Source of the DNA: a virus
Lineage: Duplodnaviria; Caudoviricetes
IMG/VR virus record: IMGVR_UViG_3300011678_000001
Location: 64,001-128,000 of that record
DNA: 64,000 nucleotides
Direction: 5' to 3' (one strand)
The position numbers and the translations under genes were made by a program. This document shows positions 3,322 through 63,556 of this stretch, piece after piece. The notes beneath the pieces are model-generated. The model did not search any database and had not been told where the DNA came from. It saw only the letters and a list, made by a program, of their open reading frames with translations. Within the stretch, counting starts at the first letter, position 1; each line of letters begins with the position of its first letter.

Positions 3322-3324
3322 CTG

Positions 3325-4056: not shown

Positions 4057-4064
4057 TCGATGAC

Positions 4065-4332: not shown

Positions 4333-4380
4333 GATAGTCTCCTTAAGACTGGGATAGTCAGGAAGATCGTTCTTCCTATT

Positions 4381-4420
4381 CACTGTTACTATGTATGGTT
4401 GAAATAATCTTCAATCGAAA
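4381..4420 (-). promoter_or_regulatory. Putative phage early promoter (TACAT-n7-GTGA motif)
   Basis: Minus strand gattgaagattatttcaaccaTACATAGTaacaGTGA; the same motif recurs at 11419, 32297 and 36326, always on the minus strand. Confidence 0.6.
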
Positions 4421-4454
4421 AATAAAGGAGGGCCGAAGCCCTCCGTTTATGCTG

Positions 4455-5237: not shown

Positions 5238-5328
5238 GATAACTCCTTGTTTATCGGGGGAGGGGAATGGTAGTCGTAAGCTACGCCAACGAATACTATG
5301 AGATACTTGTCCAAATCCGAGGGACACC

Positions 5329-6078: not shown

Positions 6079-6590
6079 CCGCCAGTGTAAAAGTGTCACC
6101 GTACTATAACCTGCTGGTGATTGCACAATCGGCTGGGGTCACAGACTTCAGCACCCTGCTGTATGACAATGGAACGCTGTATATCGAAGGCATCGAACAA
6201 AGTGCGTTAGATGCAGCCATGGTCAGTTACTCGCAAGAGAGCTACGTCAAAGAACTTCAGATGGCTGACATCGCCGCTACTCGTTTCGAACATGAGACGG
6301 GAGGCATTGTCGTCAATGGACTACGAATCAACACCAGTCGCGACAGCCAAGGCTTGATTTTGGGCGCTACGGTGCAGGTGATCATCGACCCAACGTACAC
6401 GTTGCGCTGGAAGACACCGCTGGGCTGGGTGCAGTTTGAAGGCGACCAAGTTACCATGATCGCCTCTATTGTTCGGCAACATGTGCAAGATTGCTTTGAT
6501 CGCGAAGAAACATTAGTTGATGCGGTAAATGATGGAACATTCGAAGAAAGTATGCTCGAACAGGGCTGGCCTGATCCGGTTAAGTCCTAG
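6075..6590 (+). CDS. DUF4376-like tail-fibre-associated protein
   Basis: RFEHETGGIVVNGLRINTSRDSQ...WKT..GWV...HVQDCFDRE pattern; ATGA-coupled to the fibre gene. Confidence 0.7.
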   Translation: MTASVKVSPYYNLLVIAQSAGVTDFSTLLYDNGTLYIEGIEQSALDAAMVSYSQESYVKELQMADIAATRFEHETGGIVVNGLRINTSRDSQGLILGATVQVIIDPTYTLRWKTPLGWVQFEGDQVTMIASIVRQHVQDCFDREETLVDAVNDGTFEESMLEQGWPDPVKS

Positions 6591-6644
6591 TAAAGAAAGA
6601 ATATCAACATAGTGGGAGGGCTCCGGCCCTCCCACGTATGCCGC

Positions 6645-7058
6645 TTAGCTGGAAGTGCTGACACCCAGCTTACTGAAGACCTCGAAACACGCTGCGGTCA
6701 TCTCTTCGGTCAAGCTGACCCGAGTCGCAAACTCAGGTAACTCGCCGCTGTGAGCCTTCCAGAACCCAGGCCCCGGTAGGCCACGGTCTTTACCGGATTT
6801 ACGCACCACCAGTACGGTGAGGTGAGGCAATCCGTTTGCTTTGCAGAAGTCGAAGACGTCGTACAGAACCGGCGACAGTGCACTGCCTAAAGCACTACCT
6901 CGTGACGGGAGACCCAGCATGATTGCCAGGGTTTCGTAATTGACCGTCTGTCGTTGTATTGCCATCAGTTGCAGGGTATTGAGACAGTAGAGGGCTCTGA
7001 TCTGACGATCGCTCATACCGTTAGTGACGACTGCTTCTTTACAGATGTTAGCTTCCAT
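6645..7058 (-). CDS. Small HTH-like protein
   Basis: AGGAG RBS before MEANIC; TVNYETLA..LG...CKANGLPHLTVLVVRK..LPGPGFW. Confidence 0.6.
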   Translation of the reverse strand: MEANICKEAVVTNGMSDRQIRALYCLNTLQLMAIQRQTVNYETLAIMLGLPSRGSALGSALSPVLYDVFDFCKANGLPHLTVLVVRKSGKDRGLPGPGFWKAHSGELPEFATRVSLTEEMTAACFEVFSKLGVSTSS

Positions 7059-7117
7059 GGGAAGTCTCCTGGCTACGTTGGTAGCCTCAGTAGGGTGGGT
7101 TACAGCAGGTGTTACAG

Positions 7118-7702
7118 TTAAACTGCCTTGTCGTGGGACACGGCAGGAGGACAAGCTTTGGCCAGTAACTGGTTAAGCTTGATATTGAGGAACGGGTAGA
7201 ACACCGATTGCGATTCAACCGTATTCAGCCGCACCGCAATAGCGAGTGCGAGGTAATCGTCATCACCCGGACAGTGTTGACGAAACAACCGCACATAGAG
7301 GTTCAGCACGATTGTGCAAAGGTTAATGGCGTGAGTGTGTAGGTCGCGCTGCGTCAGGCAGCCAGCCCGTTCTCCAAGCTGGTAGAGGGCGTTGCTCTCG
7401 ATGACCAGCAAGTGTAGGTCCATCTCATCGGCGGTTCCATGTGCCATAAATACTGCTTCAGCGGTTTGCCTGCACAGGCTGAGGATTGCCAACATGTCAA
7501 TGATACCGTCCAACAGCAACGGGGTCATGGATTCATGTCCGTCTCGCTCAGCACGCATCACGGCAAGTGCGCTGTATTTTTGTTTTAGCAAGAGCTCCTG
7601 TATCCGCTCTTCGCTAGATTTATGGGCATAATCGTCGCTTCGATAGAACCTGTCGTGCAGTTCCACCCGATATTGCAGTCGGGCGATTGACAGGGTGTCC
7701 AT
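7118..7702 (-). CDS. Hypothetical protein
   Basis: ORF with GGAGG RBS in a tight operon. Confidence 0.65.
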   Translation of the reverse strand: MDTLSIARLQYRVELHDRFYRSDDYAHKSSEERIQELLLKQKYSALAVMRAERDGHESMTPLLLDGIIDMLAILSLCRQTAEAVFMAHGTADEMDLHLLVIESNALYQLGERAGCLTQRDLHTHAINLCTIVLNLYVRLFRQHCPGDDDYLALAIAVRLNTVESQSVFYPFLNIKLNQLLAKACPPAVSHDKAV

Positions 7703-7710
7703 GATACCTC

Positions 7711-8004
7711 CTAATGTGAATGGATGAAGCGGTGAATCTGCTCCGTGTTATGCAGTGTCCCGATGAACACCACGGTGTAAAGAATCAGCAGCACGAGCAC
7801 ATGGATGACATGGCTCATGTACGGCGCAAAGAGATAGACTATCCCAACCGCCCCTAGGAAGAAGAGCGTTATGCATAGTCCTGCCGATGTCCCCGGTCGC
7901 TCATCCCTCGCCCACGGAAGGAGCAGGCAGAGGTTCAACAGGTAGAGGCTTACGCTGATTAGAATCAGCAAGGCGACCACCAGTCCCATGACCCAAACTT
8001 CCAT
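7711..8004 (-). CDS. Small membrane protein (3 TM)
   Basis: Hydrophobic helices; abuts neighbours. Confidence 0.6.
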   Translation of the reverse strand: MEVWVMGLVVALLILISVSLYLLNLCLLLPWARDERPGTSAGLCITLFFLGAVGIVYLFAPYMSHVIHVLVLLILYTVVFIGTLHNTEQIHRFIHSH

Positions 8005-8247
8005 TTACACCACTCCTATCCAAGTTAAGAACCGCGATACTACCAGGTACAGCAACCAGACCATGCACGCTGAGAACAGGGTCTGGAAGAGGATGTGCCA
8101 GACGTTCTGACGCAGGTGACGGCTCAGCGTAGTTGCCAGACATTGATCCACAAGAAACCGATAGGTCTCCCAGTGACGATACACCACTACAGCGAACGTG
8201 CTCATCAGGATAACGATCAGCGCAGTGAGTTCAGTGTCTATTCGCAT
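8005..8247 (-). CDS. Small membrane protein (2 TM)
   Basis: Two hydrophobic helices; abuts neighbours. Confidence 0.6.
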   Translation of the reverse strand: MRIDTELTALIVILMSTFAVVVYRHWETYRFLVDQCLATTLSRHLRQNVWHILFQTLFSACMVWLLYLVVSRFLTWIGVV

Positions 8248-8618
8248 TTCTTGGCTGCCCTCTCCCGGAAGAAGTCTTCCAGCTTGGTGGGGTGATGCAC
8301 TTCTGGCAGGCGCGCCTCATTGATCTGCTGCTGCCACTGATTCAAGAAGTCCCGGATGGGCGATTCGCCAGATTCCATGAACTCGACCGTGAACCCGGTG
8401 CCGGTTTGCACGTTACCCAGGTTGTCAGGTTGAGGCTGACCCAGTGCATGCAGCATCCGCTTTGCACGCATCCCAAGGCCATTGCTGAACGTCGGAGCGC
8501 ACATGCCACCGCCCTGAGGGGCGAGGATAGTGAGGTGGTTAAGCAGCTCGATCAACTCAGGTGCATGCTCGACCAGTTTAGTTTTGAGTTCTTCGGTGAC
8601 TTCAACTTGGTTGTCCAT
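8238..8618 (-). CDS. Hypothetical protein
   Basis: AAGGAG RBS; operon context. Confidence 0.65.
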   Translation of the reverse strand: MDNQVEVTEELKTKLVEHAPELIELLNHLTILAPQGGGMCAPTFSNGLGMRAKRMLHALGQPQPDNLGNVQTGTGFTVEFMESGESPIRDFLNQWQQQINEARLPEVHHPTKLEDFFRERAAKKCE

Positions 8619-8627
8619 GACAACTCC

Positions 8628-9008
8628 TTAGAAATGAGTCAGATCAAAGGTGACGATCTGAGGTTCTTGACCAATACCGCTCAGGGCCCGTACACCGAAC
8701 TGAAGACGCTCAGTGTCGCCCCTGTTCATCAACTGCTTGAGGATCTTGGACTTCGGTCCTAACGGCATGACAGTACCGTAGACATTGCCATCCGCTCCAC
8801 GAAACACCTCAGTGATCTTGGCGCAGACATTGGTTTTGTCGATGTGGCTGTAACGCGCCATGCGGCTCTGTGGGCCGGCAGTGTCTGGAACCTTAGGGTA
8901 GCCAAACTCCACCAGCATATCGCCGTTGTCAGCCTTGTCCTGGAGCTTCTTGAGGGCATCTTCTCCGATGCGGACGTCACCGGTACCCAAACGAAAGATC
9001 TTTTCCAT
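8628..9008 (-). CDS. Prohead-protease (T4 gp21/phiKZ gp175 fold) paralog lacking catalytic residues
   Basis: VEFGYP, IDKTNVCAKI, YGTVMPLGPK, FGVRA and IVTFD line up with the family motifs GExGHP, IDxxxVSHxI, GxxxPxGPxG, FSxRS and IVTWD. Confidence 0.55.
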   Translation of the reverse strand: MEKIFRLGTGDVRIGEDALKKLQDKADNGDMLVEFGYPKVPDTAGPQSRMARYSHIDKTNVCAKITEVFRGADGNVYGTVMPLGPKSKILKQLMNRGDTERLQFGVRALSGIGQEPQIVTFDLTHF

Positions 9009-9010
9009 GG

Positions 9011-9214
9011 TTAGTTCTGCCCTGGCCAGTACAGTGCATCCGCCCGACCTTTGAAGACATCAAAGGCCATCTTGACGCGTTTCGAAAACCGAGTGAACGT
9101 CAGCGGACGGGCTCTCACCCAAGCGGTTCGACCATTGTGCGGAATGGCCACGGTGGTGTCAGCTACCGTTTCGTCGAGGTCATACGCGATGACCGCAGCA
9201 GGATGACGTTTCAT
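9011..9214 (-). CDS. Conserved small phage protein
   Basis: AGGAG RBS before MKRHP; WVRARPL...AFDVFKGRADALYWP motif. Confidence 0.65.
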   Translation of the reverse strand: MKRHPAAVIAYDLDETVADTTVAIPHNGRTAWVRARPLTFTRFSKRVKMAFDVFKGRADALYWPGQN

Positions 9215-9222
9215 GATGACTC

Positions 9223-9447
9223 CTAGCGATAGTGAAATTGATACGCGACCAACAAGACGCACGATAAGAACGACCCGACGATAAAGACATCCGTCGAGAA
9301 CACGATGAACCGACGAGGGATGTACCAGACCTGTCGTGTCCCTGGAACGATACTGCTGGTTTGGATATAACCCATCACTCGCATCAGCAACACCACCGCC
9401 ACCGCGATGCTGTAGCTGAACAGTGCGATAAACTCCTTATCGTTCAT
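9223..9447 (-). CDS. Small membrane protein
   Basis: AAGGAG RBS; two hydrophobic segments. Confidence 0.6.
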   Translation of the reverse strand: MNDKEFIALFSYSIAVAVVLLMRVMGYIQTSSIVPGTRQVWYIPRRFIVFSTDVFIVGSFLSCVLLVAYQFHYR

Positions 9448-9469
9448 TGTTGCTCCTTACAGTAGACTG

Positions 9470-9838
9470 TCAGTGAAGGACCTTGTCGTTGGCGATGTTA
9501 GCTGAGGCATCGAAGACCGACCCTTGCACAAAGTCGATCTCCAGCACGCCACGGATCTTACCAAGTGTCGCCATGTCTTCATTTACCTCGATCAGGTAAT
9601 AGACCCCGACATCGTACGGTCCCTTGCCAGGCTCGGGCGCCAGCCCCATCTTGGAAAGATCGGTGCCGAATATGGTCACCACACGCTCATGGCCGAGTTC
9701 CTCGAACAATTTAGGAATCATGTTCGTCAAGGCCACCGCTACTGCAACTTCTAGGTCAGGGTCACGGGCGCGTATGTAGTCCATGGTGGCTGTGGGATCT
9801 TGATTAATGAATACCGCCAGTTCAAGTTGCTTTTTCAT
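9470..9838 (-). CDS. Hypothetical protein
   Basis: ORF directly downstream of dcd. Confidence 0.6.
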   Translation of the reverse strand: MKKQLELAVFINQDPTATMDYIRARDPDLEVAVAVALTNMIPKLFEELGHERVVTIFGTDLSKMGLAPEPGKGPYDVGVYYLIEVNEDMATLGKIRGVLEIDFVQGSVFDASANIANDKVLH

Positions 9839-9850
9839 ATCGATTCCCTG

Positions 9851-10675
9851 TTAGACTTTAGCGAGGGTGAGGCCGCGTTGGCCCATGTACTTGCCCATCT
9901 TGTCCTTGTACGACCGCAGACATTCGTCATCGCCTTGGAAGAAGACAAATTGTGCAATGCCTTCTTCGAGGTAGCAGCGTACTGGGCTGTTCGTGACGTT
10001 GGCCACTTCGATGACTACTTCGCCTTCGAACTCAGGCTCGATGGGGGTGACGTTACAGATCAGCGCCGAGCGTGCATAGGTCGACTTGCCCAGCACAATC
10101 ACCAGCACGTCACGGGGAATGCGGAAGAACTCCATCGTCGGGGCTTGGATGTAGCTGTGAGCAGGAATCAGGACATAGCGCGCACCGTCACTATCCACGC
10201 GGATCTGCGGGGCTGCAAAGTTCTCAGCCAGCATGCGCTTCGGATCGATCTCCGGCACGAACACGTTGGTGAAGACCTTGATCTGCTCTGGGTCGCCTTT
10301 AAGGCGTACGTCGTAGCCATAGGACGACGTTCCGTACGAGATCACCTTACGGGCAGTCTCAGGCGGTTCCTCGCCGTACGCGACGTCTACGGGCGCTCCA
10401 GAGACACGGTCGACATAACGCACAGGGCGATCGACAGCCCCTTCGATCATGGGTGTCCAGGTGGCCAGTTCTTCAGGAGAGATTGGTCGGCAGTACTCTT
10501 TGCGCATGAGCTTCTCACGACCGTTCTCCAAGCACCAGTTGTTGATCACCTGTTGCTGGTACGGCGTGTACGGCGGGCCAATCAGACGCACGTGGTCCGG
10601 GTTGGCATGTTCGATAAAGCGGTGCGTTGGTTGGGTGCACTGCTCGATGATCCACTTGTCACTTTTCAAACCCAT
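9851..10675 (-). CDS. dcd: dCTP deaminase with N-terminal insertions
   Basis: ISYGTSSYGYDVRL, LGKSTYAR, NVTPIEPEFEG, EGIAQFVFF, SYKDKMGKYMGQRGLTL. Confidence 0.93.
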   Translation of the reverse strand: MGLKSDKWIIEQCTQPTHRFIEHANPDHVRLIGPPYTPYQQQVINNWCLENGREKLMRKEYCRPISPEELATWTPMIEGAVDRPVRYVDRVSGAPVDVAYGEEPPETARKVISYGTSSYGYDVRLKGDPEQIKVFTNVFVPEIDPKRMLAENFAAPQIRVDSDGARYVLIPAHSYIQAPTMEFFRIPRDVLVIVLGKSTYARSALICNVTPIEPEFEGEVVIEVANVTNSPVRCYLEEGIAQFVFFQGDDECLRSYKDKMGKYMGQRGLTLAKV

Positions 10676-10685
10676 GTCAGTTTAC

Positions 10686-10985
10686 TCACTTGGAGGTTAT
10701 GATGTAGTTGCGAACTTCGGTACTTCGACCCATTAACACCTTGGCTTGCTTACGCACGACATCGCCGTACCAGATCCATTCGAACCAGTTCATCCTGTCG
10801 ACATGATCACGGTAATATTCGCCTTCAGTCAGGAAGTCCCGATAATAGCGCAGGGTCGTGTCGGAATCGAACAGCACCATGCCTGTCCGCTTAGCGTGCA
10901 AGACTTCATCCGAAGCCTTAAGGCACTTCTGGTACAGTTCGTTGCGCTGCTTGTGACGCTCTTTCACGTAGGCGAAGTAACTCAT
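10686..10985 (-). CDS. Hypothetical protein
   Basis: RBS; operon context. Confidence 0.6.
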   Translation of the reverse strand: MSYFAYVKERHKQRNELYQKCLKASDEVLHAKRTGMVLFDSDTTLRYYRDFLTEGEYYRDHVDRMNWFEWIWYGDVVRKQAKVLMGRSTEVRNYIITSK

Positions 10986-10997
10986 GGGTAGTCCCTT

Positions 10998-11345
10998 TTA
11001 GTGTACGATGGTGCGTACGGTCGGCTCAGGGCGCTCACACGGCTTAAAGCGTGCTGCTTTCTCTCGGAGGGCGACTGTAAGGTTAAAGCGGGTCGTAGCC
11101 ACGCCTAGTTTGTGTTTGACGGCATAATTCAGTGCCAGCTTCAAGACCGCCTTGCGGATCGGCTCGAAGTTCTGAGTGTCCTCAGGTTCACGGAACAACT
11201 CCCCTACGTAGTAGATGTCGACCATGCCTGACTTGTTGCCTTTCTCGTCTCTGACGACACAGGTACCCATCTTACGGAACCCCGGTAGGGCTGTAAGACT
11301 GACGGTTACCTTATCGTTCAGGTTATGTACTGAAACTGAACTCAT
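10998..11345 (-). CDS. Hypothetical basic protein, first gene of early operon
   Basis: Likely start MSSVSVH at 11345, downstream of the TACAT motif at 11419-11459. Confidence 0.55.
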   Translation of the reverse strand: MSSVSVHNLNDKVTVSLTALPGFRKMGTCVVRDEKGNKSGMVDIYYVGELFREPEDTQNFEPIRKAVLKLALNYAVKHKLGVATTRFNLTVALREKAARFKPCERPEPTVRTIVH

Positions 11346-11418
11346 TGCCCCTACCCCATGTTGACAGCATAGAAAAGTGCGACAGTTTTTTATTTTACCC
11401 CTGTTATTGATCAGGGTA

Positions 11419-11459
11419 TCACGTGGATAATGTATCGCTATATAACCGTTCATTTTACA
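11419..11459 (-). promoter_or_regulatory. Putative phage early promoter
   Basis: Minus strand ggttatatagcgaTACATTATccacGTGA. Confidence 0.55.
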
Positions 11460-11545
11460 AAAAACTTCTCCCCCGGTACATTATGCAGAGAGGACCAACC
11501 CATCATCATTTGGTCTCAGAAATCATTAGCTAGGGCTATTACCCC

Positions 11546-14023
11546 ATGATCAAAGAATTCATCAAACGTGACGGACACATCGAACCCTTCAAAGCCGACA
11601 AGGCCCTGGGTTGGGCGAAATGGAGTGCGCGTGGGTTCTCGAAATACATCGATTGGAACAAGATCGTTGTTCAGACCGTCTCGCAAATGCCCGAGCGTTG
11701 CACCGCCCAACAGTTCAACGACGGCTTGATCCGTAATGCGTTGAATGAAGACACCTGGGCAGGCCAGCTAATGGCCGGTCGTATCTACGCCGCGGACATC
11801 CACAAGGAAGTCTTCGGTGGTAAGAAGAAGATGACCATCCGTGAAGTTCACACCGTCATGCAAGCCGCTGGCGTCATGGTCACGCTGAACTACTCCAATG
11901 AGGAATACGCCCAGATCGAGTCGATGATCGACCATGAGCGTGACTTCCATTGCGCGCACTACCAGCTCAAGCAAGGTCGTGACAAGTACTCGCTGCGCAA
12001 CCGCATCACCGGGCGTATCTACGAGTCCCGTCAGCATGCCTTGATGCGTGTGGCAATGGCCATCTGTGAGCCAGAAGACCCGATCCTGCGGATGGCCCGT
12101 CTGGAATCGCTCTTCTCGGACCTGTCCTTCGAGCGCCTGTCGGCTCCGACCCCGAACCACAACAACATGGCCACCGGTCACAACGGCTTCTTCAGTTGCT
12201 GCCTGTTCACCTGTGACGACTCCAAAGAGTCCATCGCAGCGTCCAGTCACATTGCAGAAGTGATGACCTACATGTCCGCCGGTCTCGGCGAGAACATGCA
12301 AGTGCGTTCCTTGGGCGATGGTATCCGTAACGGCTCGATTGTCCACAGTGGCAAGATCCCGTACTACGGCAAGCAGACGGGCATCGTCAAGTCCAACAAG
12401 CAAGGCTCGCGTGGCGGTAGCCTGAACGAGTACTTCAGTGCTTTTGATCCTGAAGTCAAAGAACTGATGGTGCTGAAGAACCCACGCACACCAATCAACA
12501 AGCGTAACCGCAGCATCGACTACACGATGATGCTCAACCGCTTCTTGCTGCACAAGTCGTCGATCGAAGAGAACGTCTTCCTGTTTAACTGCTACAACGC
12601 CCCGGATCTGTACGCGGCGATGTATGGCAAGGACCAGGACCTGTTCTTCTCGCTGTACGAGAAGTACGAGAAAGACCCGACGTTCAAGAAGACCTACGTC
12701 TCGGCGCGTGAGCTGGTGGTCAACGCCCGTTCCGAAGGCTTTGAGACCGGACGCTTCTACCTGGCACTGATCGATGAGATCAACTACCACACCCCGCACC
12801 GCGATCCGATCTACTCGTCCAACTTGTGCGTGGAAATCACGCAACCGACCTACTGGTACAAGCACCTGACCGAGTTGTACTCGACCAAGTTCTTGGGCTT
12901 CATTCGGTTTGAGACCACCAAAGGCCAGGACAAGCTGCTTGACAGCAACATCCCGGTCGAGATCAAAGGCTATCCGGGCAAGGTCGCGGCACTGGAACTC
13001 AAACCCGGTGTCCTGTACCGTAAAGCCGGTGATCCGGAATGGACCACGGTCAGCAAGGTGATTGAGAAGCGTCAAGAGCCTGAGGTTTCCCTCTGTGCCC
13101 TGGCTGCCATCATCATCAGCAACATCCACAGTGAAGAGCAGTACGCGGAAACCGCGTACAACGCGCTGTACATGATCGACTACTGCATCGACTATAACGA
13201 CTACGCCCTGCCGCACATGAAGCTCACCGCTCAGGCTCGTCGTAACGCCGGTGTCGGGATCATGGACCTGGCCCATTACATGGCCCGCAAGAAGCTGCCG
13301 TACCACACCGAGGAAGGGTACAAGGAATTGCACCGTGTGGCTGAGCGTCATGCTTACCACCTGATCAATGCCTCCATCCGCCTGGGTCAAGAACGCGGTA
13401 ACGCTGAGTGGATTCACAAGACCGATTGGCCGCGTGGTTGGACGCCGATGGCGACCTACAACCGCAACGTCGACAAGCTGGCTGACTTCGAATACCAGTA
13501 CAACTGGGATGCGGTGTCGCTGAACCTCATCGCCTCTGGCGGTGGTCGCTTCAGCTCCCTGATTGCGCACATGCCGGGCGAGTCGTCGTCTAAGTACAGT
13601 GCGGCAACCAACAGCCTGATGGAACTGCGTGAACTGTCGATCATCAAGACCGACGGCGACAACAGCATGTACTGGGTAGCCCCTGAAGCGGATACGCTCA
13701 AGGAGTACTACGGCATTGTCTGGAACTCGACACGCTACCAGCAGACCAACCTGTACGCCATCTTCCAGAAGTGGGCCGACCAGTCAATCAGTGCTGACCT
13801 TTACGCCACCTTCAAAGGTGACGAGAAGATCAACAGCTCGGATCTGATCAAGGAAACCAACTACATCGCTGAGATGGGTCAAAAGACCGTGTACTACACC
13901 AACTCTGACACCTCGGACAAGGAGGCGCTCAAGTCGGTATTCGAACGCGTCCGTCGCGAAGTGCTAGATGATGGTCTGGACATGTCTGGACCTGTGTGCA
14001 CCAGCGGTGGTTGCTCGGTATAA
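11546..14023 (+). CDS. nrdA: Ribonucleotide reductase class Ia alpha subunit
   Basis: N-terminal ATP-cone-like KRDG, SAPTP, FFSCC, SSNLCVEI, HMPGESSS, KTVYY, C-terminal CTSGGC. Confidence 0.95.
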   Translation: MIKEFIKRDGHIEPFKADKALGWAKWSARGFSKYIDWNKIVVQTVSQMPERCTAQQFNDGLIRNALNEDTWAGQLMAGRIYAADIHKEVFGGKKKMTIREVHTVMQAAGVMVTLNYSNEEYAQIESMIDHERDFHCAHYQLKQGRDKYSLRNRITGRIYESRQHALMRVAMAICEPEDPILRMARLESLFSDLSFERLSAPTPNHNNMATGHNGFFSCCLFTCDDSKESIAASSHIAEVMTYMSAGLGENMQVRSLGDGIRNGSIVHSGKIPYYGKQTGIVKSNKQGSRGGSLNEYFSAFDPEVKELMVLKNPRTPINKRNRSIDYTMMLNRFLLHKSSIEENVFLFNCYNAPDLYAAMYGKDQDLFFSLYEKYEKDPTFKKTYVSARELVVNARSEGFETGRFYLALIDEINYHTPHRDPIYSSNLCVEITQPTYWYKHLTELYSTKFLGFIRFETTKGQDKLLDSNIPVEIKGYPGKVAALELKPGVLYRKAGDPEWTTVSKVIEKRQEPEVSLCALAAIIISNIHSEEQYAETAYNALYMIDYCIDYNDYALPHMKLTAQARRNAGVGIMDLAHYMARKKLPYHTEEGYKELHRVAERHAYHLINASIRLGQERGNAEWIHKTDWPRGWTPMATYNRNVDKLADFEYQYNWDAVSLNLIASGGGRFSSLIAHMPGESSSKYSAATNSLMELRELSIIKTDGDNSMYWVAPEADTLKEYYGIVWNSTRYQQTNLYAIFQKWADQSISADLYATFKGDEKINSSDLIKETNYIAEMGQKTVYYTNSDTSDKEALKSVFERVRREVLDDGLDMSGPVCTSGGCSV

Positions 14024-55433: not shown

Positions 55434-56417
55434 TTAGACAATAGTGGTTGTGACGTTACCGATGGGTAACAAGGCGTCTTCAGTGGCGTAACTTGCCACT
55501 TGAATTCGAGCTACAGCTTCGTGTAACACGCCATCCATACCACCTACGCTTAATGGCTGGTCGAGGGTGTCGTAACCGACCACGTTGATTCGGAAGATCG
55601 ACTGACTATGGTCGTAAGAGACATCGCCCACATTCAGAAGGAGCGGAGACATCGAATCGAGTTGAATGCCGCCGGCGTTGAAGGCAAACAAGTCGTTTGG
55701 AATCAATTCCAAGACTGGACGCCAGCCGTAACTGCCGGTCGCAGTCGCACTGGAGGTGTTGGTGAGAATCCCTGCCAGGCTGCTGTGGGTGCTCGCAATA
55801 CGCCAAACGCGCATGCCGCCGGCGGTCTTGACCTCACTGGCTGGTTTTTCCTGCACCCAACTGTATTGACCATTGCCTGAAAAGCCCAGTTGGACAGCCG
55901 TTTGACGAGTCCAGTACTCGCCCGAGGGATCGTTATCCCACAGCTTGAACAGCAGGTCGTCGACTTCACCGCCAATGGCGGTAGCCGGGTTGGCGTTACC
56001 GCCCTTCATCAACCGAACGATGTAGGCGTTATTATTGATGACCAGAATCTTCTTCTGATCGACTGGACCGTTATTGCCAGTGAACGGACCTGAACCTTCG
56101 AGCCCATAGACCGCACCAGCTTCGTAAATCTTGTCCCAAGACATGTCGTAGCGGTACGTCATCTTAGGGATGAACAAGGTCTTCTTACCGTGCATGAACT
56201 TCAGCCAAGGGGCTGTCGTGTTTGCAGCAGTGCCCGTTGTTAACCCGACCAAAGATGCCAGTGCAGCACCGTCGATCAGGTCAGCAGTCGGAACCTCGCC
56301 AAAGTAACCCTTATCGATATTGCCTGCGATGAGGGCTTTAGCACCGGGTCCCGTATACCTGAACGGGTTGAAGCCCTTGCGTTGTCTCGCCGCAGCGACC
56401 ATCAGCGCATGGAGCAT
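55434..56417 (-). CDS. Jumbo-phage virion structural paralog
   Basis: TGPGA, GYFGE, WLKF, GWRPVLE; no FN3-like N-terminus; C-terminal extension. Confidence 0.7.
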   Translation of the reverse strand: MLHALMVAAARQRKGFNPFRYTGPGAKALIAGNIDKGYFGEVPTADLIDGAALASLVGLTTGTAANTTAPWLKFMHGKKTLFIPKMTYRYDMSWDKIYEAGAVYGLEGSGPFTGNNGPVDQKKILVINNNAYIVRLMKGGNANPATAIGGEVDDLLFKLWDNDPSGEYWTRQTAVQLGFSGNGQYSWVQEKPASEVKTAGGMRVWRIASTHSSLAGILTNTSSATATGSYGWRPVLELIPNDLFAFNAGGIQLDSMSPLLLNVGDVSYDHSQSIFRINVVGYDTLDQPLSVGGMDGVLHEAVARIQVASYATEDALLPIGNVTTTIV

Positions 56418-56523
56418 GTTTGTGTACCTTCGTGAGTTCAAGCCAGCATAGCAACGATTGCAGGTGCAATCCCCCATGGCACAAATCATCCATGAGATCA
56501 CTGCACCTGCAATCTGCTAGTTC

Positions 56524-57505: not shown

Positions 57506-57599
57506 GATCAAATCCTCGAAGAAGGCGGGAAAATCCAGTCTCATAGGATTTGTCGATTCGGCATAGAAAGCGGGCAGAACGCCCGCTGACTAGGGTGTT

Positions 57600-58523
57600 T
57601 CAGGCAAAAGCTTCGAGAATGTCCTCGATCACCGTTGCCTTGTTCGGGATGGCTTGATTGAGCGCAATACGCAACCGATGCCGTCCATTCATGGACACTG
57701 CTTGGACTCGCCCCATCTGATTCTTCTTAAGCATCTGGAAGATCGCAGGGGTTTCGTAGTTGGTCCGGCCTATGGGAGAGGACCCCACAAAACAGTTACC
57801 ATTGGTCTCACTTTGCCCATGGGCAATCATCAACCGCGTGAAGTTCTCATGACTGCAGTCTAATGAAAAGACATCGTCCTTCACCGAGCCTGAACCGTAC
57901 AGTGAGTAGTGTCCGTAACAGTGTTCAAAGCCCTCTAGGATCTTGCTGGTGATGATGTTCGGATTACCCAGTGCGTTGCATGCCGCTTGTGCTAGGAAGT
58001 CTTGTACGCGCATCCCAGCGGCCTTAGCGCGCCTTAAGTAATCGTCACTGATAAAGACCGTAGTCGTCTCAGCTTCACCTTCAATGCCCTCGAAGTTGTA
58101 CAGCCTCGGGTTGAATACCTGGTTGGGTATGATCTTGCCGATGGTGGTTGGAGATTCGTAATGCATGAGCATCCCGCCGGCTGCTACCCGAAAAAGTTCA
58201 TGGGTCAAACGACTGTAACTCCAGCCATCTAAGAACTCGTGAGTGAACGACAGCCAGTACCCTTCTTCACACTCGGCCACCTTAAAGCAGCTGGGATGAT
58301 CTAAGTGGTCGCGAGGATGGGTCGACAGTAACGTCAACCGATCCGCGATCTTGACCTGATCCCCATGCCAGTATGCACGCATCGCAGGGATGTGTTGAGC
58401 AATCTCATTGGCCGCCTCAATGAGGACATGGCCTGGGCAGTCGAAGTCCGGTACAAACAAGGCACCGTAAGTCATCTGCTTACCGTGGCCCGAGAAGGCC
58501 CGCTGCATGGGGTTCAGTCTCAT
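57600..58523 (-). CDS. Condensation-domain/CoA-dependent acyltransferase-like protein
   Basis: ATGA-coupled start MRLNPMQ; HIPAMRAYW; FTHEFLDGWS...L.HEL (HxxxDG motif). Confidence 0.65.
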   Translation of the reverse strand: MRLNPMQRAFSGHGKQMTYGALFVPDFDCPGHVLIEAANEIAQHIPAMRAYWHGDQVKIADRLTLLSTHPRDHLDHPSCFKVAECEEGYWLSFTHEFLDGWSYSRLTHELFRVAAGGMLMHYESPTTIGKIIPNQVFNPRLYNFEGIEGEAETTTVFISDDYLRRAKAAGMRVQDFLAQAACNALGNPNIITSKILEGFEHCYGHYSLYGSGSVKDDVFSLDCSHENFTRLMIAHGQSETNGNCFVGSSPIGRTNYETPAIFQMLKKNQMGRVQAVSMNGRHRLRIALNQAIPNKATVIEDILEAFA

Positions 58524-59263
58524 TTCTTGATCATCCTTACAAACCAGGAGGTGGGGTCGACTTCCCACTTCTTAATGGCAAAGTTCCACCGGTTCGGAAA
58601 CTTGTGGTGGTTGTTGTGCAACCCTTCGCCGCCAAAGAGCCAACCCAAGAGCTTGGAGTTCCGCGAGCCTTCACCGGTGTCGTAGGACACATAGCCAAAC
58701 TCGTGAATCCATTTGATCGTCACATACTTGCGAGCAAACTGCATCGCCACCACTGGAATGGCCCAGAGGTAAATCAGGGCTTCAAGGGAGATCAAAGACA
58801 GTAAGGCAATCGCCACGAACGAATACGCAAAGTAGTAGCGGTAAGTGCGCATCATGATCGGATCAGAGACAAACCTGCGCTTCATGCCAGGGGTCATCTT
58901 GACGTTGATGTTCTTGAACGACACCATGCCGCTTTGGGCGTAGTAGTGATGCGGGTCTTCAGGCGTATCGGACTTCAGGTGGTGTTCCAGATGAATGATT
59001 GCGTAGAGGCCCGGATGACCGGAGAGACTCGTGCACGTCGCCCAGATCATAAACTCACGCCAGAACGGCGTGGTCTCAAAGGAATGGTGAGTGAAGTAGC
59101 GATGGTTCCCAGCTGAGAGTCCTGCAATCCAGTAGACCTGGAACATACAGAACGAGCCCAAGAGCCACCATCCGTTCGGCATAAAAAGCGCCCCGACAGA
59201 GATGACCATCGCGAAGATGGTCATCGCCGCAGCCTGTCGGTGATCAGACTGAAGGAACCGCAT
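58520..59263 (-). CDS. Delta-9-type membrane fatty-acid desaturase 2
   Basis: His boxes HRYFTH, HLEHH(LKSDTPEDPH), GEGLHNNHH; TM helices. Confidence 0.9.
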   Translation of the reverse strand: MRFLQSDHRQAAAMTIFAMVISVGALFMPNGWWLLGSFCMFQVYWIAGLSAGNHRYFTHHSFETTPFWREFMIWATCTSLSGHPGLYAIIHLEHHLKSDTPEDPHHYYAQSGMVSFKNINVKMTPGMKRRFVSDPIMMRTYRYYFAYSFVAIALLSLISLEALIYLWAIPVVAMQFARKYVTIKWIHEFGYVSYDTGEGSRNSKLLGWLFGGEGLHNNHHKFPNRWNFAIKKWEVDPTSWFVRMIKK

Positions 59264-60060
59264 TATGCAGCCTCAGGCTTCTTGGTGCGGATCAGGCGGA
59301 TGAATTGATAGCCAATATCAAACTCCCACCATTTCTCACCCAACTCAGCACGCTTGGGGCGTTTGTGATGGTTATTGTGCCAACCTTCACCACCGGCAAT
59401 CAGTGCTGCAAACCACCAGTTGTTACTGTAGTCGCCGTTGTCGTACGTCTGATAGCCCAACCCTTTCACGTGGCCTGTCCAGAGGACGAAGCGCAGCGTC
59501 AGTTGAGACATCCCCGCCGGGACCATCCACAGCCAGAATACCGCTTCAAGGGCATTCAAACCCACCGCTACACCGATCAACGCCGCCATCAGGATGTACG
59601 ACGCTACGTAGAGCCAGTAGTACTTGATGGTCAGTTGATGCAGGGTATCTCGGGCCACCATGGTCAATAGGAAGCGCTTGCTGACCTTCGTCTTGTGATC
59701 GAAGGGCGATTCACCGGTCAACTGTAACTTGACGTAAGGATCTTCTGGTGTATCGGCTTTACGGTGGTGCGTCATGTGCGTATCGGCCCAGATGCACGGC
59801 GGTCCCACCAGGGAGACCATTGCACAATAGGACATCACCCATTGCCAGAAGCGGTTGGTTTCGAACGCGTTGTGTGAATAGTACCGATGCACCCCCACAC
59901 TGATGCCCACCACGTTCAGGATCTGCCACAGCACCAAGGCTGCGATGATCAGAACGGGATTGAACTGCAAGAACGCGACGATCGGGGCGAGTGCCACCGA
60001 TGTCATGATGATCCGGTTACCCCAGACCATGTTGGTGTTGGTTGGTTTGAACATGTTCAT
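59263..60060 (-). CDS. Delta-9-type membrane fatty-acid desaturase 1
   Basis: His boxes HRYYSH, HMTHH(RKADTPEDP), GEGWHNNHH; WWEFD. Confidence 0.9.
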   Translation of the reverse strand: MNMFKPTNTNMVWGNRIIMTSVALAPIVAFLQFNPVLIIAALVLWQILNVVGISVGVHRYYSHNAFETNRFWQWVMSYCAMVSLVGPPCIWADTHMTHHRKADTPEDPYVKLQLTGESPFDHKTKVSKRFLLTMVARDTLHQLTIKYYWLYVASYILMAALIGVAVGLNALEAVFWLWMVPAGMSQLTLRFVLWTGHVKGLGYQTYDNGDYSNNWWFAALIAGGEGWHNNHHKRPKRAELGEKWWEFDIGYQFIRLIRTKKPEAA

Positions 60061-60068
60061 GCTACCCC

Positions 60069-60698
60069 TTACCCCTGTAGGATTTTCACGGTCGCCAAGG
60101 CGTCTGGTTCGACTTCCGGATACAGCGCCTTGATGTCTTCTTTGGTCACTTCATACATATACACCACAAAGGCGTTTTCAGTACTGGTGTTGGTCAAGGT
60201 GTAGGCTTGGGGCTTGGTCAACTTGAGGTGTTTGAATGCATTGTGCTCGCCAGTACCAATGGTGACGCTGCCTTCGACAATGAACAGGTTGCGCTCAAGG
60301 TCAGAGGCCTCGATGGTCACCGATTCGCCCGGTGCGAGTGGATAGTTCGCTGACCGATACAGCTTAGCACTGATGTCGTTGGCCATGATGCAGACAAACT
60401 TGCTGTCATCTTCACCACCCTGAACCCGGTACTCGCCCTTAACGCTCAAACGTGCATCCAAGGTAGCATCGCCCCGGTGACGTTCGAAATCAGGCATGGT
60501 TGCCGAGACGAACTGAATCGTGCCTTTGACAATGGCATTGGCCCGATAAGTGTTGACCCCAATGGTGGAGTCGTTGAAGGCTGTTTCACGAGGGACGTCC
60601 ACCGCAAGCACCACGTACTGGCCTTTGTTCAGACTCAGCTCATAGACCTTGAAGTTAGGCAGTACCCGTACGTTCCAGCCAGCTGGTAGGAATTCCAT
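60069..60698 (-). CDS. Double cupin-like beta protein
   Basis: AIVKGTIQF and LFIVEGSVTIG strands; GGAG RBS. Confidence 0.5.
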   Translation of the reverse strand: MEFLPAGWNVRVLPNFKVYELSLNKGQYVVLAVDVPRETAFNDSTIGVNTYRANAIVKGTIQFVSATMPDFERHRGDATLDARLSVKGEYRVQGGEDDSKFVCIMANDISAKLYRSANYPLAPGESVTIEASDLERNLFIVEGSVTIGTGEHNAFKHLKLTKPQAYTLTNTSTENAFVVYMYEVTKEDIKALYPEVEPDALATVKILQG

Positions 60699-60700
60699 GG

Positions 60701-60928
60701 TCAGATCTCCTCAGAGTCAGGATGTCGATCAATGGCAGTGGTGGTGGGTGACGGAATATCCGCCGGAGGTAAACCGCTGTTCTCGATCAGGGCGTATGCC
60801 ATGCCCAGAACAAAAGCTTCCTTAACCGACAGACCTCCGAGGTCAAGTGGGGCGAAGTTGATTTTCGACTCCCCGAGGTCACCGCGCACCGTGGCGCTGG
60901 TGGATTGGATCGAAACTACTTTAAGCAT
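60701..60928 (-). CDS. Small hypothetical protein
   Basis: 75 aa, tightly packed in the operon. Confidence 0.55.
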   Translation of the reverse strand: MLKVVSIQSTSATVRGDLGESKINFAPLDLGGLSVKEAFVLGMAYALIENSGLPPADIPSPTTTAIDRHPDSEEI

Positions 60929-60948
60929 GACAATGTACCTTTAACAAA

Positions 60949-61533
60949 TTAGACCAAGACAACCGTGGTGGTCTGGTTGACAATGGCGTTATAGATGGCC
61001 TGCCACTGCGCGGAGCTTAAAGTCACACCTCCCACCCAACCGGCAGCAGTAGTGGGCTTGAAGCTACAGGTGTTGAGGTTAGCGCCTTTGAGGTCCTGAT
61101 CTCGGGTCATGTATCCAGCTATCGTGATACCGCCGATATTGATGCCTCGCACGCTTGCGGTCTGGGTGTTGCCTGGCGTGTTAAGCTGGAAGTAGATTGA
61201 GTAGCTATATGTTCCGTTATAGAGCGACCGGTTAATACGGATCTGCACGATGCCAGCACCCATGATAGAACCTGGGCTGACTGACCCGTAAGAACCTGGC
61301 ATGGAGCCAGTGTCTAAGAAATCGGCCGATGTCTGTGAGTTTACGGCGTATAAACTAAACGAACCCAGGCCTACCACAGCCGACTTACCACGAAGTTGAG
61401 TCAGTGAGATAGGACCGCTACCGACACCAGCCAAGCCTCGAACGTTAGAGGCACCTAGACTTATCGCACCACCGACGCCCAATTCGGCTCGCACTTGCGC
61501 CAATGAAATAGGACCACTTGAAGGTAAAGCCAT
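60949..61533 (-). CDS. Fibre-tip adhesin / receptor-binding protein
   Basis: MALPSSGPISL.QV..ELG...ISL...VR.LAGV.SGPISL..LRGKS attachment-like N-terminus; variable beta C-terminus; follows the S74 fibre. Confidence 0.65.
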   Translation of the reverse strand: MALPSSGPISLAQVRAELGVGGAISLGASNVRGLAGVGSGPISLTQLRGKSAVVGLGSFSLYAVNSQTSADFLDTGSMPGSYGSVSPGSIMGAGIVQIRINRSLYNGTYSYSIYFQLNTPGNTQTASVRGINIGGITIAGYMTRDQDLKGANLNTCSFKPTTAAGWVGGVTLSSAQWQAIYNAIVNQTTTVVLV

Positions 61534-61597
61534 GATGGGCTCTCCTGTTCAATAAGGTGGAGTCATAGAGGAGAGGCTAGGCCTCTCCTCTATTTCG

Positions 61598-62047
61598 TTA
61601 GACCGCCGGTGTCTCGGTTCCTGTGTCGTCGACAGGTTCCTCAGCGTTAGCGGCTTCTTCTGCCGCGGCAGCTTCTGCATCACGCTCGGCTTGTTCCATC
61701 TCCAGCAGACGCAGGTAGTCTGCATCACGCTTGTCGGCAAAGTGCACGTAAGCAGAGGTCAACAGGGCTGCCAGCGTGGCCACGTTCGCTTGCTGACCCG
61801 AGGGCGTACCATCAGGGTTGAGTACCTCGAACGTTTCACCGATGTTAGCCGCATCAATGGCCATCATCAGTTCACCAGCAGGACGCCGGAAGACCGTGCC
61901 GTCCATTTCGACGACTTGCTCTTCAGCGAACATCACCCGAGGAATCTGACCGTAGTCGTTGTAGATGGTGATCGAGGACGCCCGCTTCCAGGTGTCACCT
62001 GTAGCAGTCTGGATGTTGTATTTGAAATCCATCGTTGGGATTGTCAT
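61598..62047 (-). CDS. Tail-fibre-associated protein
   Basis: Lies between fibre and adhesin; acidic tail. Confidence 0.55.
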   Translation of the reverse strand: MTIPTMDFKYNIQTATGDTWKRASSITIYNDYGQIPRVMFAEEQVVEMDGTVFRRPAGELMMAIDAANIGETFEVLNPDGTPSGQQANVATLAALLTSAYVHFADKRDADYLRLLEMEQAERDAEAAAAEEAANAEEPVDDTGTETPAV

Positions 62048-62071: not shown

Positions 62072-63556
62072 TTACTGACCTGCAGGTGACTGAGCCACTT
62101 GCGTCTGGAGTTCTTGGAACAGGGCTGTCAGGATGTCGACACGCTGACTCAGTGCATCGATCTGATTACCTTGATCGACGACAATGCCGTGCAGCTCCTT
62201 GATGCCTTCAGCCAGCAGGGCTGTGACGTTACCGTAGGAGATACCCATGTAGCCGTCTGGTTCGCCCTTGGAGACGACTTCCGGCAGCACCTTGTACATC
62301 TCTTGGGCAATGAAGCCTGCTTGAATCTGGCCACTGTCTTTACGACGGTAGATCACACCCCGCACACCATGAATGCGCTCAAGGGGATTGTCGATGACCC
62401 GGATATTATCCTTCAGTCGGATGTCCGAATACGCCGTGATGTTACCGGCGGCGTAAATGTCCAAGGCCACACCCAGACCACCGGAGATACGCACCGCGCC
62501 TGAAGTGGCCGACGTGGCGTTACTGGTGTTGCCGAACGTGGTGATCCCGGTAACCGTACCACCGCCAGTTGAGAACTTCGCATCCAGCGCAGCTTGCAGT
62601 CCCGATACGGTCGAGATGGCTTGTGTGCCGGTATGGTTAGCTCGGTTGATCAATACCGCATCAGAGGAGTTGACCGTTGCACCGGCTGCAACCCCATCCA
62701 GTTTGGACTTATCTGCTGCGGTCATGAGACCCGCCAGGGCTGTGGTCGCTGCCGCGATGGCCGCATTAGCCCCGGTGGAACTGGAGACTGTACCGGCAGT
62801 TGCAGAAGCCGACCATGACAGGTTTGTTGCGACGTTGACTTGTGCACCGGCTTGAATGCCGTCCAACTTGCTCTTGTCCGCTGAGGTCAGAAGACCTGCA
62901 GCGGCTGTAGTAGCTGCTGGAAGTGTGGCGTTAGTGCCTGTCGAACTGACCACTGTACCGGTGGTGGTGGCCGTGGTATAGCTGAGGTTGGTGGCCACGT
63001 TAACCTGAGCACCTGCCTCAATACCATCCAGCTTAGTTTTTTCTGAAGAACTGTTCCACCAGCTGGCGATGGCTTGACGTACCCGTTCTGCTGTCCACGC
63101 TCGGCGAGTGGTAGATGTACCCGCTTCCGCTTCCGCTTGTGTGATGGTGGAGGCGACCCATTCCCGACTGTTGGTCAGACGGACATCGGTGTTTTCCACC
63201 TTGGTAGCCAGCGAATCGCTTAAGCCTGTAATCTTACTGATCTCAAGGGCTGGGATATCCGCTGCAATCAACAGCTCGCCTTTGGTGACACGGCCTTTAC
63301 TGTCCACGGTGACTTTGGGGTAGATCCCCGGAGCCACTGCGGTGTTAGCCAGGGTCAAGGCAACCGATACAGCAGCATTACCAGGAACCGACTTGGTGCC
63401 AGTGGCATCGCCTGTGAACGACAGGGTAAACGGGTTGGTCAGCTTATCGGCGCTGACCGCGGCTGCCGTTTTGTCCAACTTCGTATCAATGGATGCAGAG
63501 ATCCCCGACATTAAGTTGGCAAACTTCAGCTTGAGTGCTTCAATTTGAGTTGACAT
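62072..63556 (-). CDS. Tail fibre with C-terminal intramolecular chaperone (peptidase S74)
   Basis: YPKVTVDSKGRV; repeated KLDGI.AGAQVNVATNLS units; SDIRLKDNI...GFIAQE..PEVV..ISYGNVTALLAEGIKEL. Confidence 0.88.
   Translation of the reverse strand: MSTQIEALKLKFANLMSGISASIDTKLDKTAAAVSADKLTNPFTLSFTGDATGTKSVPGNAAVSVALTLANTAVAPGIYPKVTVDSKGRVTKGELLIAADIPALEISKITGLSDSLATKVENTDVRLTNSREWVASTITQAEAEAGTSTTRRAWTAERVRQAIASWWNSSSEKTKLDGIEAGAQVNVATNLSYTTATTTGTVVSSTGTNATLPAATTAAAGLLTSADKSKLDGIQAGAQVNVATNLSWSASATAGTVSSSTGANAAIAAATTALAGLMTAADKSKLDGVAAGATVNSSDAVLINRANHTGTQAISTVSGLQAALDAKFSTGGGTVTGITTFGNTSNATSATSGAVRISGGLGVALDIYAAGNITAYSDIRLKDNIRVIDNPLERIHGVRGVIYRRKDSGQIQAGFIAQEMYKVLPEVVSKGEPDGYMGISYGNVTALLAEGIKELHGIVVDQGNQIDALSQRVDILTALFQELQTQVAQSPAGQ

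Follow-up and report, generated by a model that had tools for sequence, protein, structure and literature searches.

The closest described systems are the fatty acid desaturases (FADs) of viruses. The single Delta9 desaturases of cyanophages are experimentally active (Roitman et al. 2017, PMC5776448), and phages of Arctic brines carry several FADs per genome (12 FAD genes between four viral populations), which was read as an adaptation of membranes to cold and salt (Zhong et al. 2020, PMC7300359; 2023, PMC10405475). Searches of PMC5776448 found no mention of cupin, tail or neighbouring genes beside the desaturase. In this study we analysed a 64,000-nucleotide stretch of DNA (the window), which comprises bases 64001-128000 of the IMG/VR record IMGVR_UViG_3300011678_000001 (a tailed phage genome of 269,790 bp, rated 100% complete). 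Its minus strand contains a unit of six tightly coupled genes, located between two hairpins, which encode a putative fibre-tip protein (g194), a small soluble protein (g75), a bicupin, two desaturases (desA and desB) and an acyltransferase-like protein (g307). Judged from its genes, this cassette looks like a small fat-tailoring pathway rather than a lone membrane-fluidity desaturase. The interpretation that we tentatively prefer is that of a phage-borne acyl-chain tailoring pathway, which would be fed by host acyl chains and host electron donors.

The comparison with published viral FADs revealed both common and distinct features. In both cases tailed phages encode compact SCD/Delta9 desaturases that have three His boxes and evolve under purifying selection, and a genome often contains several of them. 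In the passages searched, the above papers deal with the desaturases on their own, as genes for membrane fluidity, whereas here they belong to a fixed unit that also encodes a condensation-type acyltransferase, a bicupin and a small protein and is headed by a fibre-tip adhesin gene. Two related contigs (L020 and L022) resemble the published brine phages in genome size and FAD copy number and may be close to them.

Tandem desaturases are also present in gene clusters of the JamABC (jamaicamide) and caryoynencin type, which comprise an acyl-AMP ligase, an acyl carrier protein (ACP), two to three desaturases and a thioesterase. The cassette shares with such polyyne clusters the tandem, diverged membrane desaturases, which presumably act successively on one acyl chain, but it has a condensation-type transferase in place of the thioesterase and lies in a phage structural-gene context. 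With the condensation (C) domains of nonribosomal peptide synthetases (NRPSs), and with VibH, PapA5, WS/DGAT and BAHD enzymes, g307 has in common an HxxxDG motif, which its low-confidence predicted model puts at the same place of the fold, in an alignment spanning both lobes. However, g307 is shorter, its first His is replaced, it gives no match to PF00668, and no carrier partner is encoded by the phage.

Receptor-blocking genes provide a further comparison: llp of T5 adjoins the receptor-binding gene pb5, and O-antigen modification genes are found near tailspike genes. These systems and the cassette are alike in that an accessory function is linked to, and exchanged with, an adhesin. The former, however, are single lipoproteins or glycosyl or acetyl transferases with demonstrated exclusion, whereas the cassette is a putative multi-enzyme lipid unit. 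Full-text searches of the literature on jumbo-phage desaturases, tail-fibre linkage and acyltransferases found no such cassette described. The acyltransferase, the bicupin and the adhesin linkage thus appear to be unpublished, in contrast to phage desaturases as membrane-fluidity genes.

The original prediction for this DNA had described a tightly coupled gene run behind S74 fibre and adhesin genes, and all of the elements that it listed are indeed present on the minus strand. Its account of the genes was correct overall, except that the start codon of g307 is most likely the ATG at 58523 (giving 307 aa) and not the GTG at 58568, and that the second (upstream) hairpin had been overlooked. From 5' to 3' on the minus strand, the region contains the following features:

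62072-63556, minus strand: S74 tail fibre gene, 5' of the unit; the product has a C-terminal S74 intramolecular-chaperone domain (PF13884, E 3e-14) and matches many tail-fibre PHROGs.
61598-62047, minus strand: 149-aa open reading frame (ORF), fibre-module protein with an acidic C-terminal tail.
61566-61592, minus strand: upstream hairpin with a perfect 12-bp stem, after the 149-aa ORF; 5' boundary of the unit.
60949-61533, minus strand: g194, predicted gp38-like fibre-tip (adhesin-type) protein (phrog_26817).
60701-60928, minus strand: g75, ORF for a small soluble protein of 75 aa, kept in four lineages.
60069-60698, minus strand: 209-aa bicupin, assigned from an AF2 model and structure matches.
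59263-60060, minus strand: desA, 265-aa compact membrane desaturase of the SCD/Delta9 family (PF00487, 76.2 bits).
58520-59263, minus strand: desB, 247-aa second desaturase (PF00487, 54.8 bits).
57600-58523, minus strand: g307, 307-aa acyltransferase-like protein, predicted member of the condensation/CoA-dependent acyltransferase superfamily.
57564-57592, minus strand: terminal GC-rich hairpin (from RNA folding), followed by TATGCCG; 3' boundary of the unit.

The junctions of the unit, as read from the sequence, comprise gaps of 20 nt (g194 to g75), 2 nt (g75 to the bicupin gene) and 8 nt (bicupin gene to desA), a 1-nt TAATG overlap between desA and desB, and a 4-nt ATGA overlap between desB and g307. 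The hairpin expected at the end of the cassette (57558-57590) proved genuine, with the somewhat different position given above; it folds at -16.3 kcal/mol (z = -2.2; 8 of 200 shuffles were as good). In the related loci L018 and L020, hairpins with differing stem sequences occur at the position of the upstream hairpin, and the position of the terminal hairpin is occupied in L018 by a different one, with CATAT...ATATG on its flanks (L018 9930-9960). Since differing stems occupy the same positions in relatives, the bracketing hairpins can be regarded as conserved structural elements. The bracketed unit extends from g194 to g307, because the second hairpin separates the 149-aa ORF from g194. Both hairpins of the window are followed by TATG (57562-57565 and 61564-61567, minus strand; in the forms TATGCCG and TATGA), and the upstream hairpin of L018 is followed by TTATT, not TATG.

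The presence of two divergent Delta9-type desaturases, each with all three His boxes, was corroborated. The PF00487 scores of both exceed the cut-off of 29.7 bits, and a six-frame search gave the same result. Together with the extra His expected on the fourth transmembrane helix, the HxxxxH, HxxHH and HxxHH boxes reproduce the nine-His pattern of SCD1 in desA (H58/63, H95/98/99, H197, H228/231/232) as well as in desB (H54/59, H91/94/95, H187, H216/219/220), and SCD1 itself (4ymk) is the best match in the PDB (E 5e-9). Each protein has two hydrophobic stretches of 22-42 aa (Kyte-Doolittle), which fits four transmembrane helices arranged as two hairpins. In the phylogenetic tree desA and desB form sister clades (100/98 support) on long stem branches, and orthologues of each are present in all four lineages that carry the cassette, which points to an old duplication followed by specialisation. 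As both genes have been kept in four lineages on such long stems, they are likely to provide two distinct activities and not gene dosage. desB is 95-96% identical in relatives.

The protein encoded by g307 is soluble (no transmembrane segment) and has no Pfam, PHROG or NCBIfam match at E <= 0.1; PF00668 is without a match anywhere in the genome. Its assignment to the condensation/CoA-acyltransferase fold, which the original prediction had proposed from the motifs LxPMQ and HEFLDGWS, is supported by several lines of analysis. Among 14 homologues, down to 24% identity, H95, D99 and G100 show no variation and the conservation of W101 is 90% or higher, so that the catalytic HxxxDG(W) motif holds firmly, whereas LxPMQ is conserved only in part; the first His of the HHxxxDG signature is replaced in this family by T, S, R, N or D. 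Searched among 1.84e9 proteins, the family profile matches an NRPS C domain exactly at "FHHAILDGWS" (E 1.9e-5), and hhalign of g307 against NRPS C domains gave an alignment of 242 columns (E 7e-5, probability 64%). The predicted model has a mean predicted local distance difference test (pLDDT) score of only 55.5, and with this model all of the top 50 Foldseek matches were C, E, Cy or BAHD proteins (E from 4e-9). The VIA search with the same pLDDT-55.5 model likewise returned only the condensation superfamily as top matches (Z 9.8-7.4; 195-261 residues spanning 1-307): C domains at 9.8-9.4 (9.7 for that of SrfA-C), PapA5 at 8.2 and VibH at 7.8. Finally, a feature search of the ESM Atlas placed g307 at 0.97 to clusters annotated as "CoA-dependent acyltransferase", Condensation, PapA_C and WS_DGAT_C.

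From these profiles and models we concluded that g307 probably represents a new, unusually small family inside the condensation/CoA-dependent acyltransferase superfamily. It is considered a new family and not a member of a named one, because it lacks Pfam, NCBIfam and PHROG matches and only the family profile reaches NRPS C domains. The family is tiny, with eight representatives at E <= 1e-30 among 1.84 billion proteins, all of them from metagenomic or viral contigs. A pattern scan of 185,579 species genomes detected no relatives, and a metagenome scan returned a single sequence, the T5-like 108-kb contig already in our set (see below). The g307 alignment used as a profile gave no match to PDB sequences, and a single-sequence PDB search reached the surfactin synthetase C domain at the motif without significance (E 1.9). 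The g307 profile also matched P0013, a 2063-aa repeat protein with a YDG domain and a repeated "HTWxDG", which was treated as a low-complexity false positive.

The third protein of the cassette had been described as "cupin-like". The cupin fold holds, and the protein is more exactly a bicupin without a conserved metal-binding His set. Its AF2 model (pLDDT 89.5) matched DR1152, AerE, BacB, pirin and OxdC in Foldseek (E 3e-8 to 1e-5; DR1152 and AerE at 3e-8 to 2e-7) and, in VIA, YhhW (Z 10.5 over 165 aa) and BacB (Z 10.4 over 169 aa); the C-terminal barrel reached Z 11.0 with a root-mean-square deviation of 2.2, and matches to bicupins span 165-175 residues. It thus resembles BacB/AerE, the pirins YhhW/YhaK and YlbA/DR1152 (DUF861) in its two-barrel cupin fold, its size of about 210 aa and VIA Z values of 9.4-10.5, but lacks their usual conserved His/Glu metal site. 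The invariant residues are R52, N54, R73, R75, G76, D77, R83, C103, Y114, N118, E135, N137, K156, Y166, N170, Y180 and Y182; no conserved metal-binding His/Glu set was found among the homologues, in which H157 alone is nearly invariant. Sequence relatives of the bicupin are confined to this phage cassette. The predicted structures in BFVD that come closest to it belong to uncharacterised phage proteins, some from uncultured tailed phages and others from the Prochlorococcus phages P-HM1 and P-HM2 (TM-score 0.58-0.64), and a phage-wide family of metal-poor bicupins may, on these models, exist.

The 75-aa protein g75 is kept in four lineages with the motif EAFxxGMAYAxLxNxG. Its role as an acyl or peptidyl carrier was considered and rejected: Ser34 of the "LGGLS" sequence becomes Pro in L020 and L022, and a six-frame search of the genome with PF00550 was empty.

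The gene at the head of the unit, g194, gave no Pfam match at E <= 0.1 (PF05268 and PF21721 included). About 55 aa of its N-terminus are conserved and contain three GxISL-x3-R/L-x-ELG-like repeats, a motif that also occurs in proteins encoded beside the tail fibre in Vibrio and Pseudomonas phages; the C-terminal part, in contrast, varies. The N-terminal profile recruits a protein (L080:3028-3909) that is itself PF05268 GP38 at E 1e-13, and the Atlas gave Gp38_N (in 16% of one cluster) as a lead. Moreover, the position of the gene directly after the distal fibre gene, together with the conserved N-terminus and variable C-terminus, corresponds to the gp38-type arrangement. On account of the conserved N-terminus, the profile-linked PF05268 protein and the Atlas lead, the most fitting description of g194 is that of a gp38-like protein of the fibre tip, whose C-terminal part can be exchanged. 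In all related loci a homologous fibre gene lies ahead of the cassette. The 149-aa ORF has no family match; it is 77% identical in close relatives and 33% identical in the T5-like genome, where it adjoins the fibre.

The order fibre-g194-g75-bicupin-desA-desB-g307 is kept in five IMG/VR contigs, which correspond to four lineages as defined by g307 identity (81%, 47%, 32% and the phage of the window itself). There are small variations of this order: in the 32% lineage (L021) a small ORF is found before, not after, the g194 homologue, and the 47% lineage has a third desaturase added after g307. Three desaturases each are present in the contigs L020 (223 kb) and L022 (131 kb). Every locus with an orthologue of any of the genes for the bicupin, desA, desB and g307 contains all four of them (5 of 5 IMG/VR contigs), and the g307 and bicupin profiles match just these five among 79 viral loci chosen solely for an SCD-type desaturase. 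Measured against two relatives with about 81% identical g307, the ratio of nonsynonymous to synonymous substitutions (dN/dS) is 0.03 for desB, 0.05-0.06 for desA, 0.07-0.08 for g307 and 0.11-0.13 for the bicupin gene, with dS of 0.8-2.7, i.e. near saturation. The four enzyme-like genes are therefore under strong purifying selection.

The linkage of the cassette to fibre and adhesin genes, which the original prediction had pointed out, is supported: the whole block, including the fibre and the N-terminus of the adhesin, has been exchanged between otherwise unrelated phages. The 32% lineage is represented by a complete genome of 108 kb, which has terminal repeats and whose neighbour genes are like those of T5-like Stenotrophomonas/Xanthomonas phages. 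Only 11 of the 313 proteins of the phage analysed have any match in this genome, and seven of these 11 form the contiguous fibre-to-g307 block, which indicates that the block moved between unrelated phages; apart from it, the two genomes have just four proteins in common. Within this block the C-terminal part of the adhesin is only 46-72% identical among relatives, compared with 81-96% for the enzymes.

The host of the phage is probably Pseudomonas, since its ribonucleotide reductase is 79-80% identical to the homologues of the Pseudomonas phages pPa_SNUABM_DT01 (DT01) and Noxifer. These closest cultured relatives are without the cassette (in DT01 the fibre genes directly abut the DUF1353 gene), which makes the cassette an accessory trait. 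Among 50,697 phage records, the region has no nucleotide similarity, g307 gave no match in tblastn, and the search for the desaturase and g307 found none except in a pelagiphage and in one mislabelled record. The record CAKLQH020000002.1 ("Acinetobacter phage MD-2021a"; L105) contains btuB, baeSR, trpC, ugpQ and ydiU around its desaturase (1-10615); this region looks like a bacterial chromosome, and the "phage" label of the 254-kb record is doubtful.

Downstream of the terminal hairpin, a DUF1353 "tail assembly chaperone" gene is followed by more fibre-like paralogues. Three tandem paralogues (294, 318 and 355 aa; phrog_1062, "virion structural protein") lie 3' of the cassette at 53569-56501 on the minus strand. 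Their copy number differs among relatives, and in L019 an additional 219-aa copy separates g307 from the DUF1353 gene; these fibre-like paralogues form an array that evolves rapidly. None of the seven proteins of the cassette region matched a PADLOC defence-system model.

As regards partners, searches of the genome revealed no ACP (PF00550), acyl-AMP ligase (PF00501) or ketosynthase, and no PlsC-type acyltransferase, 2Fe-2S ferredoxin (Fer2), cytochrome b5 or FNR-type reductase. As the phage encodes no carrier, ligase, ketosynthase or electron donors, acyl chains and electrons must come from the host. SCD-type enzymes act on acyl-CoA or acyl-lipid, and enzymes of the condensation superfamily take CoA or carrier thioester donors; because these substrates overlap at acyl-CoA, the latter would be the natural shared currency. 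We infer a single pathway, in which the host would provide a fatty acyl chain, most simply as acyl-CoA or another thioester and possibly in lipid-bound form. The sub-functionalised desA and desB would each insert one double bond into this chain, and the soluble HxxxDG protein g307, translationally coupled to desB, would move the acyl group from the thioester to a hydroxyl or amine acceptor. The metal-free bicupin and g75 may be accessory, acting in ligand binding, isomerisation or scaffolding. The product would most likely be a modified lipid of the host envelope. Being one hairpin-bracketed unit headed by the gene of the fibre-tip adhesin, the cassette is probably made together with the tail fibre genes.

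The cassette belongs to a wider pattern. Compact (about 250 aa) "GEGWHNN" SCD-type desaturases are encoded in 494 IMG/VR contigs, many of them in rows of two to five (e.g. L070 2397-6211, L081 5132-9045 and L078 5899-8152, within loci L025-L103). As the paralogues of a row are old and orthologous between contigs, such rows can be considered as stable, specialised enzyme sets that did not arise by recent amplification. At least three more lineages, which differ in GC content (L080/L044/L045/L048, L076 and, weakly, L061), have a gp38-type gene no more than a few kb away from desaturases. In the L080-type loci and L076 the order is gp38-type gene, small ORF (90-107 aa), 169-178-aa protein and one or two desaturases, with additional 128-aa and 253-aa ORFs within this order in L076; in L061 the fibre and a gp38-N-like gene come after the desaturase array. 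A distant relationship connects the 169-178-aa protein with the bicupin (hhalign probability 91%, E 1e-6), and the 90-107-aa ORFs have no detectable homology to g75, whose position they share (hhalign probability 0.3%). The ancient core thus appears from these comparisons to consist of an adhesin, a cupin-like protein and one or more desaturases, to which g307 was added in the Pseudomonas-type lineages.

Two of the loci, from another phage lineage, contain one same-strand cluster each: L061 (IMGVR_UViG_3300034171_000062, 65-11619) and L081 (IMGVR_UViG_3300035034_001213, 22-9985). The order is two radical-SAM-like genes, a 141-156-aa protein, two PF13759 2-oxoglutarate (2OG)-Fe(II) oxygenases, a FabF-like ketosynthase and four to five desaturases; 3' of the cluster there are an S74 fibre and a gp38-N-like gene in L061, and a PKD/DUF285 protein in L081. 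The first five genes of these clusters are collinear homologues of a separate radical-SAM island of the phage analysed here (34.7-38.3 kb; G000:C1:28449-38308), and a homologue of the 183-aa Cys-His-tailed protein of this island (42-50% identity) is encoded about 5 kb upstream in both loci. No Cys-His-tailed protein was found in the complete T5-like cassette genome. Another arrangement was observed in Pelagibacter phage Mosig (MT647606.1, 4363-5639; L104), where a desaturase gene directly follows that of an LpxO-type Asp/Arg hydroxylase; here, too, a desaturase is paired with a beta-barrel protein of the oxygenase type. Both genes are part of a sugar/lipopolysaccharide (LPS)-type modification island, together with an ArnB-like aminotransferase, a taurine-dioxygenase-like gene, a methylase and an N-acetyltransferase.

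Several other explanations of the cassette have to be considered. If its role were plain membrane fluidity, desA and desB would desaturate host phospholipids directly and so keep the membrane fluid while the infection proceeds, as has been proposed for the FADs of cyanophages and Arctic-brine phages, and g307, the bicupin and g75 would serve something unrelated, e.g. fibre assembly. The papers quoted above show that viral Delta9 FADs are active enzymes (PMC5776448) and that FAD genes occur in phages of 222-230 kb whose predicted host is Pseudomonas (PMC7300359, PMC10405475); the abundance of compact desaturases of the same type in IMG/VR, and the related modules in other lineages which hold desaturases without g307, point in the same direction. 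We nevertheless find this explanation rather unlikely. It leaves unaccounted for a g307 gene that overlaps desB by ATGA, is under purifying selection, and occurs only with these desaturases and in every lineage having desA/desB orthologues. Moreover, the retention of two or three old and diverged paralogues next to one another speaks for a difference in position or substrate and against dosage, and no part in fibre assembly is known for any condensation-type acyltransferase. As for the analogy with jamaicamide and caryoynencin drawn by the original prediction, a diffusible, bioactive polyyne or polyene is suggested by tandem diverged desaturases adjoining a condensation-family enzyme, and by other phage contigs with three to five desaturases in a row, some with a ketosynthase. 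The cassette, however, has just two desaturases, and the 100%-complete genome encodes neither ACP nor acyl-AMP ligase nor ketosynthase, while g75, whose serine is not conserved, is no carrier. This analogy is thus highly implausible.

Two alternatives give more weight to the adhesin. g307 might attach a doubly unsaturated acyl chain to g194, g75 or another protein of the fibre module, so that some tailed phages would have a lipid-bearing tip for host recognition. This would explain why an adhesin gene heads the unit, why the order adhesin, small ORF, cupin-like protein, desaturase recurs in at least three further lineages, and why fibre, adhesin and enzymes are co-transferred. The L061/L081 loci could be read in the same way, as their desaturase array and FabF-like ketosynthase are fused to homologues of the radical-SAM/2OG-oxygenase genes and adjoin an S74 fibre, with the homologue of the Cys-His-tailed protein upstream; if lipidation of the tip were true, the ketosynthase, the additional desaturases and the radical-SAM/oxygenase set would extend the same logic in other lineages. 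We know, however, of no enzyme of the condensation superfamily that acylates a folded protein, and lineages with an adhesin, cupin-like protein and desaturases but without g307 have no acyltransferase for the task. Furthermore, the T5-like genome has the cassette yet no Cys-His-tailed protein, many phages carry g194-type proteins without desaturases, and the enzymes remain constant even though exchange of the adhesin C-terminus is free, so we regard this possibility as unlikely. A masking role, in which an altered surface lipid or LPS lipid on infected cells or debris blocks binding or entry of the same or competing phages, agrees with the adjacency to and co-transfer with the adhesin, with the absence of this accessory trait from the closest cultured relatives, and with the hydroxylase directly upstream of the desaturase in the Mosig island. 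On the other hand, all proteins except the desaturases are soluble, without signal peptides or transmembrane segments, which would confine the chemistry to the cytoplasmic face; and strongly differing adhesin C-terminal domains stand beside near-identical enzymes, so there is no pairing of one receptor with one cassette. The original idea of allele-specific receptor masking is weakened by this disparity, and masking as a whole seems to us about as unlikely as lipidation of the tip. Lipids of the infection compartment, also proposed originally, are disfavoured by the occurrence of the same cassette, inside a tail-fibre gene block, in a T5-like phage with almost no common genes; for the same reason the idea of lipids for early phage infection (EPI) vesicles was abandoned. 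Of the original interpretation, therefore, the component assignments and the adhesin linkage stand.

There are also observations which weigh against the acyl-tailoring pathway that we prefer. Compared with the known two-lobed members of the superfamily, g307 lacks about 120 aa (307 versus about 400-480 aa), and its predicted structure is poor. No g307 homologue was found at the loci of the L080-type, L076 and L061 lineages; as the adhesin/cupin-like protein/desaturase order occurs there without it, g307 is an add-on and the desaturases can evidently work without it. No chemistry can be assigned to the bicupin or to g75, and both might be accessory proteins of the fibre instead of enzymes. Accessory genes commonly insert where a tail-fibre operon ends, so that the linkage may be positional. 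As to expression, we do not propose a late "TATG" promoter for the unit, since no TATG follows the corresponding hairpin of L018.

To conclude, phage desaturases are now read as simple, host-derived helpers of membrane fluidity. Judged from the cassette, these enzymes appear, in one widespread group at least, to belong to a fixed, phage-only multi-enzyme unit, which is inherited together with the receptor-binding tip. Its predicted acyltransferase, g307, is, on the basis of the model, the smallest two-lobed condensation-type protein met in our searches, and its compactness may make it suitable for structural studies and enzyme engineering. Should an envelope lipid be the product, the cassette would represent a new way in which phages rework the cell surface late in infection; should it be a lipid on the virion, we would be dealing with a new type of virion modification.

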